DNA of 64,000 bases from Vermamoeba vermiformis (lineage: Eukaryota): contig JBEWZL010000084.1 in assembly GCA_045837725.1 (NCBI GenBank), forward strand, positions 310,001-374,000, written 5' to 3'. A program made the translations under genes and the position numbers. The notes below the pieces were generated by a model. That model had not been told where the DNA came from and did no database searches. It saw only the letters and a program-made list of their open reading frames with translations. This document shows, one piece after another, positions 18,180-58,979 of this stretch (positions are counted from its first letter, which is position 1; the number at the start of each line of letters is the position of its first letter).

Positions 18180-20827
<2,648 letters not shown>

Positions 20828-21057: not shown

Positions 21058-24522
<3,465 letters not shown>

Positions 24523-36374: not shown

Positions 36375-38745
<2,371 letters not shown>

Positions 38746-46364: not shown

Positions 46365-47114
46365 TAGTTATGCTACAATACTGCTCGTGTGTCTGGTATT
46401 TTTGAAATATAAATGCGACAAAAAAACACGGTTCAAGTCTCTGTATTGAGAATAAAAGTAGAAACAAGACACGCGAACTGTCATTGCAATCAAACCTCAT
46501 TAAAAGCGCCAACAACGCTTTGTACCAATTGTAAAGGTTAATATGATATGCAAATGACCGTTATCATTGACACGAAAGCGTCTGGAAAAAAATAGGTGAG
46601 TTGACGTCCATCTGCGGCGTGAAGAAAACCAATTAGAATTAACTAGAGCATAAAAAAATTTGAAAAATTACGATAATAATTGTTCTGTAATTATGACTTA
46701 CCCTGTTATGTAGGTTCGCCCATCGGTTAGATCCGTAGTTTTACACGTCCCAAGTGGATTACTTAGAAAGCAGAAATGCTAGCAATATTATTGATTATGG
46801 TAGTGACTTTTAGCTTTTGGCAAAATGAGCTTGGCTGGTGCAGAAAATCCGATCGCCCGCCAAAAATACTTCAATAGAACCTTCAAATACAATCAAAAAT
46901 ATCATAAGATTAATCTTCTATTGGTATTTAAATGTTTCTCATTATATAGTGCGTAGGTCAGAAATTCGCTACTGAAAAACGGCCGGAAACTATTGGCCGA
47001 CTATTTATAGAATGGACCATAGGAATTCACCAACAGCCAAATAAAAATGTAGTGGCTTTTATGTGCGCAACTACTGTTATCTTCGCAAGTACATAACATA
47101 AATAATAAGCTATT

Positions 47115-48432
47115 ATGGGTAATTCAGCGAAAAAAACAGCGGCTGCTGCTGCTCCCACGCAACCGCCTCGAAATAAAAATATTCCCCACCACTATTTTTT
47201 AAATCTCGGTGTTATTGGTGCACCAAATAGCGGCAAGAGCACCTTTGCGAAGCAGATGCGCATATTGTACGACAATGGATTCACCGATGAGGAAAAACAA
47301 ACCTACAAAATGGTTCTAATATCAAATATATTACTTGCTATTAAGGAATTAATCGCTCAGTCGAAAAGCAAGGGCATTGCAATTGAAAATGAAGAAGCTG
47401 CCAAAATATTGACCGAGATCGATCCGGATCGAGTAGCCTTAACTCCAGAACTGGTTGGGAACGTTAAAAATCTTTGGGAGTCAAGTAAGTACTCTATATA
47501 AAAGCATTATGTGCTGCTAATATTAAAGAATATTATAAGCATGCGCGTACAATAATATAACTTTTGAAATTTCCATTCTAACGTTTTTCTTAAATAAAAT
47601 TCAGGCCTTAAACAAGTGTACAGCAGACGCAGCGAATTCGTCAATGTACCATCGACCATGGAGTATTGCATGACTATAATTGATCGTTTGGCTGATCCTG
47701 AATACACCCTCACGAACTACGATATTTTGCATGCAAGAACTGGTACGATAGAGACTACTGGAGTCAAGCAGGGCAGATTCACCTACTGCTTGGAACATGT
47801 GCCTTCAGTGCAACACATTCATGAAAATAATAACTTTGTTGGCATCGTTTTTTTTGTCGCGTTGGACGAGTGGGATGTGATGTCGGAGGAAGATCCGACC
47901 AAGACTAGGTATGTTGATATGTATTTAGTTGTACAGTAGTACTACTATACGATTAATTGATCAAATTAGCAGAAATAGTGTTCAAATCAAAAGATGTACG
48001 CTTTAGGATCTTATATTCAATTTCATAGTGGGATCCACTAACAAATGAAATCTAAATTAATAACATTAATTATAACTCAGGCTACAAAAGATCTTGGAGG
48101 AGGTTGAAAGAGCTGCTTCCGAAAAAAGCACGAGAGGGACGCCGATGATGCTGATCTTGAACAAGAAAGACGCGTTCAAGGAGAAAATCATGTGGAATGA
48201 TCTTTCAAGAGCATTTCCTGAATATAAGGGTGGCAGTGACTATAATAAGGCCATTGAGTTCATTAAAAATTTGTTCTTGGCTCGGATGCCGCAGCCGGGT
48301 ACCCGACCTTGTTATGGCACTGATCCTGTCCCTAATATTCATATTACTTGCGCCCTGGATACTCAAGAAATGAAGAACCTATTTGACGCCTTAAAGGAAT
48401 ATATTTTCAAGATGAGCGTAACCCCAGGATAA
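47115..48432 (+). CDS. Divergent heterotrimeric G-protein alpha-like protein lacking the G3/switch II motif
   Basis: Three exons. GAPNSGKSTFAKQMRILY, helical domain, DILHAR..TTG, IVFFVAL, LILNKKDAFKEKI, HITCALDT. No DVGGQ. Confidence 0.92.
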
Positions 48433-48657
48433 TGCACCAGTGCCAAGTAATATTATATACAGTATAATATAATTACATAATGTTGTAGTGCAATATAAAT
48501 ATTATATTTTAAGGTAAATTGACGGACAAGAGCTTCATAGGATTTTTCTACTCGTTGAGTAGTTAGCAAGGACGAAGACAATCGGATAATAATAATAGTT
48601 AATCATATTTGTGCAATATTTAGCTGTTCTGGTATAATATTATATCCGAACGGGATA

Positions 48658-49432
48658 TTACAATGCTTGCAAGGTTTTCAATTCCAAACTGGACACGCCA
48701 AACTGTTTTTTGTTTGTGTTGTAAACTCCACCCGCAATTTGCAATCCAAATACTCTGATATTCGATAAATCTAATGGTGGCACGTCGGAGATGATTTTGC
48801 CGCGGTAGTAGGGTTTAAATCCGGCGATCGGCATTGAAATTGTTTCAAAATCGCCAGAATTCACTAATTAAAACATTCCATTAATAAAAATATAATATAA
48901 TATACTAATAAATACCATTTACACTGAAGAAGTACTCGAATGAATATTTTGTGTCGGGATCTGATTTCAAAATGACTGAGTACAAATCATTTTGGCCTTG
49001 CGCACGCAATGTTAGCGATAATGTAGTAGCATTAGAAATATCCCATTCGATATTTACTCTTCTGCTGGCAAAACAAGCTCCATCTGAAAAGTGTAACGAA
49101 AAAGTTAATAACTTAATTGTGCCTCGTGCGTTCGGTTTCAAAAAAAATATTAGATATAACTCTTAACAGTTCTTATAGTAATAGTAATTGTATAGTATTC
49201 TGTTACCTGGTTGCGGATTCAGAAGTGTAAAAAATACTCCTTGCTGGTATTGTTGAGTCTTTTGAATATCAATTACTGCTAATGATTTTCCGACACTACG
49301 GGTTGTATCAGATACTTCAAACCAGTCCGTGGTCGAGTAATCGTCGCTGGTAAAGTCGATCAGAGTTTCTGCGCTCAATGCCATCCCGTTCAAAAGGGCC
49401 AATAATATGAATACTGCTGGTATTGCTTTCAT
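48658..49432 (-). CDS. Secreted CIA30 (NDUFAF1-like, galactose-binding-like fold) domain protein
   Basis: Signal peptide MKAIPAVFILLALLNGMALSA; WFEVSDTTRSVGKS, GACFAS, LTLRAQG, ISMPIAGFKPYYRGK, PLDLSNIRVFGL match the CIA30 pattern. Three exons. Confidence 0.85.
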
Positions 49433-55177: not shown

Positions 55178-58047
55178 ATGGAAGAGAATAAAAGTTTGGA
55201 TTTGGTTTCGGTCGTCAAGACAAGTAAGAAAAACGGCATAAAATATTATTATTTACATATATATTAATAATAATACTTATTAGAAGCGTAATTTTTTGAT
55301 GACACGTGTCGTTCGATCTACATTAATTTTTGAACTGTCCAGTTCCTTTTCCGAAAATACAGTATTCTGATAAAACATGTCATTTATATCTATAAATTTG
55401 TATTAATATATTTAATTTAATTAAAGGGAATGCCGGGCAATTGGACAATTTTTTGCAATCCGCAAGCTCGGCTGAGGCGGCTACTTCCTCTCAAGTTGCA
55501 GAAGCCATTAGATGGTGCTGTAAAAATGCGTGGTACGAAGGAGCATTGACTTTACTGCGCGCAAATGTATATAAGAAGCCTGTTGATGAATTGATCGGAT
55601 CCAAATCTGAAGATGGCAGAAGTCTGTTCCATTTAATTGCCATTGGGCAGACCAAAAGTGAACTGGATAAGCTATTTAATGAACTACTAATAGATATTTA
55701 TGCACGAGGCGAAGACATAAATCAAAGAGATTCTAACGGATCTACAGCACTCATGAAAGCCATTGAATTGCATCACGTGCCACTCGCAAAATATCTATTA
55801 TCGTTAGAAAATATTAAGCTAGATCTCACTGATATGAAACGGCTTAATGTCCTTGATAAGATAATTTTGGCGAATAACGAAACCATCGCTGAAGATCTGG
55901 TCAAAACTCACAAAGAATACAACACCAAAGAATATCAATTGAATTGGATCAAGTACCAATCGCATGTAGTCGGCTTTATGGCTTCCATATTTGGTAACAT
56001 TAACGAAGAAAAGCTGGACACGTTTTTCATGAACGCCATCCACAATGGCCTCGAGAAGCAAGTCAATTTTTTCCTCGACAAAAAAATCAATGTTTCAGCC
56101 GTTGATCCACGTGACGGAAAGCACATCTTTTGCATTGCAGCTAGTGCGGGATATTTCACCCTGTGCAAGACTCTCATGAAGAAGACAACGATCATTATGC
56201 CGCGTACTGAATGGACCCACGTGATTGCTTGGAACTCGTTGAAGACCGAACCTGTCGACTCAAAGCACGAGGCTGAATTTGTCAAACTATTCAAGGGCCT
56301 CATCAAAAACAAAGGTACGTGACTCGTAAAGTGAAACTATGACACGTGTCAAAAGATTTCAGCAATTTCCTTTCTTGGTATATATATCCGTGGATCACAT
56401 TGTAGTGATCCTTAATAATACTCGCGAAGGTACTAAATTTTTAACGCATGATAGATGTGAACATTGCCAACCGCTTGAATGGTGAGACTCTGCTGCACGA
56501 AGCAAGTTTCCGAGGCAATGTGACAGCCATCAAAATTCTGATGAAAGCCGGTGCCAATCCAATGGCCGTGACTGCACGTGGTGAAACTGCACTACATTAC
56601 CTCACGCGGTGCAACAAAGTGGCTCGACACGGTGAAATCACGAAGCTGCTGTTCGAACCACTAGTCGGAGATCAACGCCAGATTGTGTTGCAGTCACGTG
56701 GTCCTGAAGGCACCGTGGAACAAGTGGCACGCAAATACAACTTGGTCGACATGCTCATGGCTATCAATCAGATCCGCGGATTCATCGGCGACGATCTCTT
56801 TTGGTCAGTTCTATGGCTATTAATTCCCACTATGACACGTGATCAAGTCATATCTTTGACATATGTCAACAAGCGTCTCCGAGCTGTTTGTTCCCACGAA
56901 ATTTTTTGGGCGGGAAGAGATCCGGCTGCTACGTGCAACAGTCTGTTACCAGAATACGACGACTGGTGCGAAGAATTGTTGCCTAACCCACGTGACCAAA
57001 TGATATTAGCTCGTTATTATAGACAGCGCGCACGAGGAGAATATTTCAAGTTATTACTCAGCAAGACCAACCACGGCCAGTTCAATGACCGCCGATCCGA
57101 TCAAATTGTTCCTGGAATGACTTTAGCGCAACTATCAAGCTCGCAGAAACCATCGATGGAATATGCATATTTATTCGACGAAGCTAATAATCCGTTGTTG
57201 ATCGGATTCAAGCCATCCGAGGCCAAGAAAAAATCACCTGCCAAGTTATTATCTGGATTAATGAAGAAAATGAGCTTTAAAAATATCAAAAGCGGAAGCG
57301 ACAAGCTGAAAGCAAGCCAAGAAATCAAAGCCAAGGCAGATGCGAACGATGACGACGATCTAGTCAAAGATTTTGAAGCCAAAGGCCAACATATCTTCAA
57401 AGTACTATTATTGGGCGATATTGGTGTCGGAAAGACCTCCGTACTACTCAGATTCATCGAAAATCGTTACAACGTACCGGATTCGGAGCTTGAAACGATT
57501 TTGGCGGGAGATTTCGTCGAGACCGCTGTTTGCCTGCAACAAAAACTGATTAGAATGCAAATAGTAAGTAATTTTATTATATTATATACGTTATTAATAC
57601 ATTATTATTGTATAGTGGGACACGGTGCACTTACAAAAATTAAGGTAAAAATTTTGAACCGTTGGATCTCCATTACAAATTTTTTAATATTCGTTCAATT
57701 ATTACAGAAATGCATGCAACCCTCACCGAAATGCAGACATAGCCATTATTCACTTCGATATTACGAACAAAGCGACCTTCGAGCGGTTACCGGATTGGGC
57801 TTCGTGGGTCAGCAGAGATTGCTCCAGTAATACGCGCATCTTAGTTATTGGATGCAAAGCAGACTCTCCTAAACGAAAAGTAACGACTGAAGAAGCAAAA
57901 GCCAAATCCGCTGAAATTGGAGCTTCGTACATTGAAACTTCAGCGTTGTTAGATCAGAACTGTGACTTGGCTTATTGGCTCGTGGCTAACCAAACGTTGC
58001 AATATATTCATGCTGGTGTTCAATTAAATATGACCAGTATGCACTAG
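55178..58047 (+). CDS. Ankyrin repeats - F-box-like - Rab-like (probably degenerate) small GTPase fusion
   Basis: Ankyrins GSTALMKA, GETLLHEA, GETALHY; F-box-like IGDDLFWSVLWLL..VISLTYVNKRLRAVCSHEIFW; GTPase FKVLLLGDIGVGKTS, QI|WDTVHLQ, VIGCKAD, YIETSA. Stop at 58045-58047. Confidence 0.88.
56340..56351. promoter_or_regulatory. Palindrome TGACACGTGTCA, intronic copy 3
   Basis: Exact match inside intron 2 of the ANK-F-box-Rab gene. Confidence 0.5.
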
Positions 58048-58159: not shown

Positions 58160-58979
58160 TTAAATGCGGTAATTGCTAATCTTAAGCCAAGCTTGGAAGT
58201 TTTCGTTCAGATCCATTTTCACCATACTTACAGCTCCGTCGAATAAATCTCTAGTCCAATCTCCTGCCGCTGCCTTGTTGGTAATAATATCAAGAAGCAT
58301 ATCGTCAACGGAGATTTGCTTTTCTGCGCCCGATTTGACGTACTTATTGAAAGTCATCGATCCGAGTTCTGCAATCTGAGCTGGCGGCAAATTATTATCG
58401 ACGCGCCAGTGGTAAGCGTTAACACTACTGTAAAATTCTAACGTTTCTTCTAAATGCTTTGCTGCAAGGTAATTAAAGAAGGCCATGTAAAGTTCGTTAT
58501 CTTTCGTCACATCTTCCAGCACTGGTATCCTTTTGTTTGACATACGACCCAACTGAGGTGAAGACTGTGCCTATAATTATATAAGTTAATACTTGCTGCT
58601 TGAATAAGCTAGGTGAGCTGAATTTTTAACCGGGATTCAGAGCATAAAATTCAATTACGCTTCAAAAATTCTAATTTCGATTTAATACTGCTCCAAAAAT
58701 CATTTTGAATAATATTCGCTGCTACCAAATGAGTTACGTAATTTTGCAAATTAAAATAACGGTTATTTAAATTAAGCGGATTTGGTATTCGCTTACCTGC
58801 AGATTACTAGATGAAACAACTCTATTTATGGAAGGGCTTGATACTTGAGTCGATAATCTTGGTTGAGAAGCGACACGTTGAGCAGCAGCAGGCCGTACAC
58901 CTTCTAATCTGTCAAGACTTTCTTCAATACGTTGAAGAACCATGTCCAAATTATTTAAAATTGCGTCCTCGGTGGTCAT
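58160..58979 (-). CDS. Small RGS-domain protein
   Basis: AFFNYLAAKHLEETLEFYSSV..TFNKYVKSGAEKQISVD..DLFD is an RGS box. Two exons, short coiled N-terminus. Confidence 0.88.

Follow-up and report, generated by a model that had tools for sequence, protein, structure and literature searches.

The window analysed here, a 64,000-nucleotide stretch of Vermamoeba vermiformis DNA, carries at 47115..48432 a gene for a G-alpha protein whose switch II appears to be replaced. This raises the questions of whether the loss is real, whether the protein has been kept by selection, and what role a G-alpha could have without its switch.

The gene is located in a 43.3-Mb assembly (G000), which was also used for all genome-wide family searches, and is modelled as three exons (Table 1) yielding a spliced protein of 341 aa with no internal stops. 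Its description as a single exon in the sequence-only reading was incorrect: both introns are AT-rich and occupy the same positions as those in five paralogues (C11, C73, C235, C238, and C179), and a contig of run X10 lacks intron 1. Searched separately against the Pfam G-alpha profile PF00503, exons 1 and 3 scored above the cut-off (67.4 and 71.5 bits, respectively), exon 2 alone reached 44.9 bits against a cut-off of 48.8, and exons 1 and 2 together scored 113.9 bits. Exon 2 also matched PDB chains of Galphaq and Galphai1 (E values of 1e-5 to 2e-4). Most other features recorded earlier were found again in the spliced model, namely G1, NKKD of G4, TCAL of G5, the helical domain, the MGNS start, the FKMSVTPG end, and the open frame. 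The rest of the fold, however, is not intact as had been stated: alpha3 and the adjoining loop are heavily changed and an insertion precedes beta6. Myristoylation at Gly2 offers a possible membrane anchor; the N-terminus contains no Cys and has no Ser/Thr at position 6.

Table 1. Coordinates of the G-alpha gene and its main features in the window.
Feature	Position	Strand	Supporting match or reads
Exon 1: MGNS start, Pro-rich N-terminus, beta1, P-loop, alpha1, first part of helical domain	47115..47484	+	PF00503, E 1.6e-18
G1/P-loop GAPNSGKS (subfamily consensus GTSxxGK[ST]; canonical GAGESGKS)	47217..47240	+	
Intron 1, 120 nt, GT..AG, phase 1, site common to the six-member subfamily	47485..47604	+	Skipped in X10 contig
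Exon 2: end of helical domain, switch I, beta2-beta3, replaced switch II, beta4, switch III	47605..47908	+	PF00503, E 1.1e-11
RTGT: catalytic Arg168, with Thr171 as a possible Mg ligand; 2 residues fewer than in paralogues from switch I to beta2	47736..47747	+	X10 and X14 contigs reach in without a gap
beta3 plus replaced G3/switch II: DxxG and RRKW absent, net loss of 5 residues; Q193 possibly the catalytic Gln	47772..47837	+	X5 contig spans it gap-free
Intron 2, 172 nt, GT..AG, phase 2, site common to the subfamily; splicing predicted	47909..48080	+	
Exon 3: altered alpha3, G4, alphaG-alpha4, insertion before beta6, G5, shortened alpha5, stop	48081..48432	+	PF00503, E 9.1e-20; same stop in X10 and X5 contigs
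alpha3 and alpha3-beta5 loop, strongly diverged (residues 226-246: 6/21 identical to C11; 14/21 in C73)	48088..48138	+	
G4 NKKD, intact	48160..48171	+	
Pro-rich alpha4-beta6 loop with insertion of ~7 residues; PVPN also in the longer C179 loop	48295..48336	+	
G5 TCAL, intact	48346..48357	+	
C-terminus FKMSVTPG, 3 residues shorter than C11, no hydrophobic tail	48406..48429	+	

Residues 180-201 of the protein read GRFTYCLEHVPSVQHIHENNNF (47772-47837) and are encoded inside one exon. The spliced product contains no DxxG, and the replacement of DVGGQ and switch II noticed in the sequence-only reading is real in the 341-aa protein. The region is indeed shorter than usual, but the proposed deficit of about 10 residues is reached only if the count starts at TTGV, possibly not the genuine G2 motif; from the catalytic Arg to beta4 the net deficit is 7 residues, of which, most simply, 2 fall in the stretch from switch I to beta2 and 5 within switch II. 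GRFTY aligns with G[K/R][F/Y]TW of beta2-beta3. The register was checked in nine protein and three codon-level alignments with C11, C73, and C235. Some of these alignments deleted the DxGG block; the others placed D-PGGQ on HVPSVQ, which retains P190 and Q193. In no register are the G3 Asp, the G3 Gly, or the RRKW block with the switch II Trp present. This Trp is reported to be universal among Naegleria fowleri G-alphas (PMC9283941). R168 is retained; T171 matches RxxT in part of the alignments, the gap being shifted in the rest. The catalytic Gln may survive as Q193, which is retained in several alignments, and its earlier reported loss is not established. With Arg168, Thr171, and possibly Gln193 surviving, the protein may still hydrolyse GTP slowly.

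The G1 motif GAPNSGKS agrees with GxxxxGK[ST] but departs from the stricter G-alpha consensus G[A/T/Q/P]G[E/D] quoted from PMC8584482. Overall, the predicted protein shares with canonical switching G-alphas (PF00503) the helical domain, G1, G4, G5, and the catalytic Arg, but differs from them in the absence of the G3 DxxGQ and of RRKW with the switch II Trp, in a Pro-rich N-terminus that does not look helical, and in a shortened switch I/II, an altered alpha3, and a short C-terminus. Exon 2 folded alone gave a pLDDT of 39; with 55 aligned rows the value was 73, confident in the helical part only. The latter model placed a short helix at residues 192-197 and gave a pLDDT of ~53 for the switch region.

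An assembly or gene-model artefact, in which a hidden exon or a deletion had removed DVGGQ, is extremely improbable and largely refuted by independent reads. The reads of X5, X10, X14, and X20 were compared with positions 46900-48700 of the window. In X5, a water metagenome of another study, one contig runs gap-free across 47766-47978 and carries a single substitution. The replaced switch II therefore exists outside the source sample and is not an assembly error or deletion. The segment lies in the middle of an exon whose borders match those of the paralogues, and the sole DVGG text in the region, near ALDEWDV, is out of frame. In favour of an artefact, the best-matching DNA runs may be the source sample itself, and splicing of intron 2 was not seen in reads. 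Intron 1, by comparison, is confirmed by an X10 contig that joins 47484 to 47605, and a second X10 contig passes through the stop codon. The spliced contig suggests a transcript of this gene, X10 being a run of another organism label, with a depth of ~2 and a guessed RNA status. X14 carries the exon 2 variants of X10. No RNA run was listed as containing this stretch. X20, an RNA run under the same species label of which 1849 million letters were read, placed 0 reads on 46900-48700, which in a comparison made without a control stretch is no test of expression.

The Pfam G-alpha search of the genome returned 58 matches. Spliced models were built for 21 loci; one of these was Arf-like, leaving 20 G-alpha-like genes, and four weak matches lie outside this set. 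DxxG is missing in 4 of the 20 genes (the window gene, C238, C179, and C8), while two more, C145 and C201b, keep DxxG without the Gln. Both intron positions occur in six genes: C73, C11, and C235 are intact and read D[V/P]GGQRAERRKW, and the window gene, C238, and C179 are G3-less. In C238 (G000:C238:502200-504400, L048), G3 is replaced by ESGPEHENSKMW and switch I is changed. C179 (G000:C179:113000-115500, L055) has no GK[ST], reads NNVD at G4, contains both introns, and is open in its modelled part; by its motifs it is a candidate nucleotide-free pseudo-G-alpha. The same gene has an apparent short first exon, MGQKST, and is the most degenerate member of the subfamily.

The six paralogues formed a clade with a support of 99 in a quick tree of 65 rows that included C179. 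In a careful tree of 18 rows, with the long-branched C179 left out, the subfamily was supported at 100/99 and the clade of the window gene, C11, C235, and C238 at 98/96. The closest paralogue of the window gene is C11 (48% identity). A clade of the window gene and C238 appeared in 10% of bootstrap trees and was not rejected by the AU test (p 0.44), so that the trees are compatible with one loss of G3 as well as with repeated losses. An irregular N-terminus and a P-loop of the GTSxxGK type are traits of the subfamily, also present in its intact members, and thus predate the loss in the window gene and are not special to it. Among named relatives in the wider clade, the Flabellula baltica protein P0039 is the closest. 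Relative to this amoebozoan GTxxxGK clade (C11, C73, C235; P0170; wider: Flabellula baltica P0039, P0009, P0155), the window gene has the same introns but has lost D[V/P]GGQRAERRKW. No description of the clade was found in the literature searched.

Six retrieved C238 sequences, three of which are near-copies within one cluster, share 88-96% overall identity with C238 and vary among themselves at a single position of the remodelled switch I/II region. Strain orthologues of C238 are numerous in public data (P0157 and its cluster), making it better sampled than the window gene. The intact C11 (L040) and C235 (L037) have DPGGQ where DVGGQ is usual and KWP instead of KWI/KWV, and the DPGGQ/KWP form of C11 is conserved in its metagenome orthologues L056 and L057. 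Two genes outside the subfamily, both very divergent and roughly modelled, are C8 (G000:C8:9000-12200, L052), with LIGGR at G3 and SRIN at G4, and C145 (G000:C145:536200-539200, L053), with DLPGN. Metagenome loci such as L071, L076-L080, and L084-L089 represent a large group of soil-type G-alphas related to the subfamily, with GISGSGK P-loops, a RARQRTTGE switch I in which Ile is changed to Glu/Gln/Ala, and an intact DVGGQ.

The comparison of the window gene with C11 gave a dN of 0.43 and a dS of ~2.3, the latter near saturation, with dN/dS of ~0.18. C11 and its metagenome orthologue L056 differ by a dS of 0.76, so that the duplication would be older than the C11/L056 split if rates were similar; the lineage of L056 and L058 lies at a dS of 0.5-0.8 from this genome. 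In simulations of neutral point mutation, the frame remained free of stops in 0 of 2000 runs at 52% identity and in 13 of 2000 at 75%. Divergence is concentrated in particular regions: counted without the N-terminus and the alpha4-beta6 loop, identity to C11 is 15/57 in switch I, switch II, and alpha3 (26%) versus 136/239 in the other core (57%; Fisher p 3e-5). The intact C73 has the reversed pattern, with 49/64 positions of the switch/alpha3 regions and 138/240 elsewhere identical to C11. The helical domain is identical to that of C11 at 60 of 107 positions (dN 0.29, dS 2.5).

Strain data are mixed. The X10 strain displayed 5 synonymous and 3 non-synonymous differences in 169 codons, plus an in-frame 3-nt insertion cluster (p 0.013, or p 0.04 when two extra replacements were counted). 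X14 adds one replacement, and X5 (depth 2-3) shows 4 non-synonymous and 0 synonymous differences in 215 codons. Pooling X10, X14, and X5 yielded 5 synonymous changes versus 8 replacements, with no significant synonymous excess (p 0.11). At one position the window strain has Y where the paralogues and the X10/X14 strain have Asp. Protein searches with exon 1 and exon 2 for a full-length orthologue, which covered longer proteins only, returned no match, and the search of representative proteins with exon 3 gave nothing above 59% identity. The subfamily-alignment search recovered relatives of C238 and C235 but no orthologue of the window gene; this blank is weak, since no C11 orthologue was recovered either. 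In the metagenome scan with exon 2, 0 of 217 candidates were confirmed as orthologues. The best 80 of 117 loci from the scan with exon 1 included two C11 orthologues and one C73 orthologue but none of the window gene; DxGGQ was present in 75 of these 80, and the other five had no usable model there. Sampling in all these searches was thin. The pseudo-G-alpha idea of the sequence-only reading is supported as regards selection, namely the open frame, the low dN/dS, and the region-specific loss of switch surfaces, but not as regards loss of the catalytic Gln. Long-term selection is no proof of present function.

In G-alphas, switch II and alpha3 pack on each other and form the effector groove, the switches are where RGS proteins dock, and the receptor takes up the C-terminal residues. 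The gamma-phosphate and Mg are bound by G3, and the interface with G-beta-gamma is shaped by the switches (PMC8584482). The predicted window protein keeps the motifs for guanine and phosphate as well as the helical lid, and the partner surfaces appear to have been lost together; uncoupling from G-beta-gamma and receptors can reasonably be inferred. We hold it somewhat better than an even bet that an old duplicate of an intact G-alpha, closest to C11, has turned into a folded, nucleotide-loaded, non-switching adaptor or competitor. Two of its five closest sisters lost the same switch, and the window G-alpha is therefore probably a non-switching adaptor or decoy and not a signalling switch. Such a protein would still fold, with a guanine nucleotide held between its Ras-like and its helical domain. 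It would not sense the gamma-phosphate and would present a single surface state, with poor or absent GTP hydrolysis. It would bind neither G-beta-gamma, RGS proteins, nor effectors of the switch II/alpha3 groove, and probably no receptors. Its job would rest on the conserved surfaces, that is, the helical domain, switch III, and alphaG-alpha4, and its role could be that of a constitutive membrane-proximal adaptor or of a competitor for the partners of the parent G-alpha.

Three other explanations accept the protein as real. It may be a slow, rewired GTPase of class iii, similar to RGK proteins, with reduced conformational change and a private effector. The intact G1, G4, and G5, the G2 spacing of R168-x-x-T171 in some alignments, and the retention of P190 and Q193 when C11 and C235 are aligned at the codon level and, in several cases, at the protein level are consistent with this, as is the hydrolysis by RGK proteins despite divergent G motifs described in PMC5593906. 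Yet no register recovers the G3 Asp or Gly, VDPGG or its equivalent is simply deleted when C73 is the partner in the alignment, and alpha3 has decayed along with switch II, so we regard a slow GTPase as unlikely. We also consider it quite unlikely that a once-functional duplicate under relaxed selection is becoming a pseudogene. The terminal branch of the window gene (1.18) is long in comparison with C11 (0.05 plus a stem of 0.12), the X5 changes are all non-synonymous, the window strain has Y at a position that is Asp in the paralogues and the X10/X14 strain, the X10 depth is low, and the metagenome scans (exon 2; exon 1, best 80 of 117 loci) contained no orthologue. Decay is opposed by the lack of stops and frameshifts, the strictly in-frame indels, the intact splice sites, the mostly synonymous X10 differences, and a helical domain dN far below its dS.

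A nucleotide-free scaffold of class i, in which the G motifs would serve folding only, as in AAGAB or in plant XLG2, for which a nucleotide-free state in vivo has been called probable, appears very unlikely. The P-loop Pro where conventional G-alphas have Gly (GAPN versus G[A/T/Q/P]G[E/D]) and the loss of the Mg-holding G3 Asp point in this direction, and C179, with no P-loop lysine motif and with NNVD at G4, suggests that the family can go that far. Against this, GK(S)T, NKKD, and TCA are exactly kept while neighbouring surfaces changed. The nucleotide-loaded, non-switching adaptor or competitor remains our preferred reading. A more doubtful extension of it is that several switchless G-alphas (the window gene, C238, and C179) arose from the amoebozoan clade, that switch II was replaced by a different fixed segment in each of them, and that they act outside the heterotrimer as adaptors or decoys loaded with nucleotide. 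On this view the replaced switch would serve as a new binding surface kept by selection, as the nearly unvarying segment of C238 suggests.

An RGS domain is encoded nearby (58160-58543, minus strand; E 3.4e-9) in a small gene at 58160-58979 (-). It was considered as evidence for a partner and rejected: the chance of an RGS match within ~10 kb is ~1.5%, but this figure is post hoc. A link is unlikely given the shortened switch I, the lost switch II, and the 33 RGS matches in the genome. RGS matches lie within 30 kb of 3 of ~19 G-alpha loci, versus 0.8 expected (p ~0.05, post hoc). RGS domains usually carry Asn where the gene in the window reads EETLEFY and QISVD. PMC3971589 reports that RGS proteins radiated in amoebozoans and that GoLoco does not occur beyond metazoans and choanoflagellates.

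The claim that the window holds a second GTPase without G3 agrees with our inspection by eye of a Rab-like domain at ~57390-57990, which reads WDTVHLQ across introns. The gene at 56448-57990 (+) combines ankyrin repeats, an F-box-like stretch recognised by eye, and the Rab-like domain, with GCKAD at G4, and is probably a pseudo-Rab fusion, judged by its motifs. As far as tested, its presence near the G-alpha gene is coincidental, and the informative context is provided by paralogues elsewhere in the genome. Other genes, named by eye, look ordinary: a CDC5L-like gene at 18180-20288 (-), a LETM1-like gene with an EF-hand at 22315-24522 (+), and a C-terminal exon of an AGC kinase at 38401-38745 (+).

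Inactive G-alphas are reportedly covered by a comparative-genomics survey. No paper on G3-less amoebozoan G-alphas was found in the literature searched, whose reach mostly excluded subscription papers. Precedents for non-switching GTPases do exist, namely plant XLGs, Rnd, and RGK. Plant XLGs are likewise G-alpha derivatives specialised for nucleotide-independent roles but, according to PMC8584482, still bind G-beta-gamma and RGS proteins, whereas the corresponding surfaces of the window protein look lost. The window G-alpha, moreover, is of independent origin, has 341 aa with no long N-terminal extension, and belongs to an amoebozoan clade in trees computed without XLGs. With pseudoGTPases of classes ii and iii (Rnd, RGK) it shares a degraded switch II and retained nucleotide motifs, but these are small Ras-like proteins, in contrast to a full G-alpha with a helical lid. 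Members of class ii bind nucleotide without hydrolysis (both points: PMC5593906), and from its motifs the window G-alpha is predicted to work in the same way. AAGAB is given as an example of class i in PMC12490416.

Non-cycling G-alphas are best known from plant XLGs, which still bind G-beta-gamma. If our preferred reading is true, the protein would represent a role of the G-alpha fold that needs neither switch nor trimer, with the pocket and the helical lid under selection. The reach of this finding is limited to a single lineage. Within it, however, one parent gave rise to a graded series, from the intact C73, C11, and C235 through the G3-less window G-alpha and C238 to C179 without a P-loop, which makes the question directly testable by ordinary biochemistry. 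If the switchless family is also real, it would be a natural series on what a G-alpha does via its helical domain alone.
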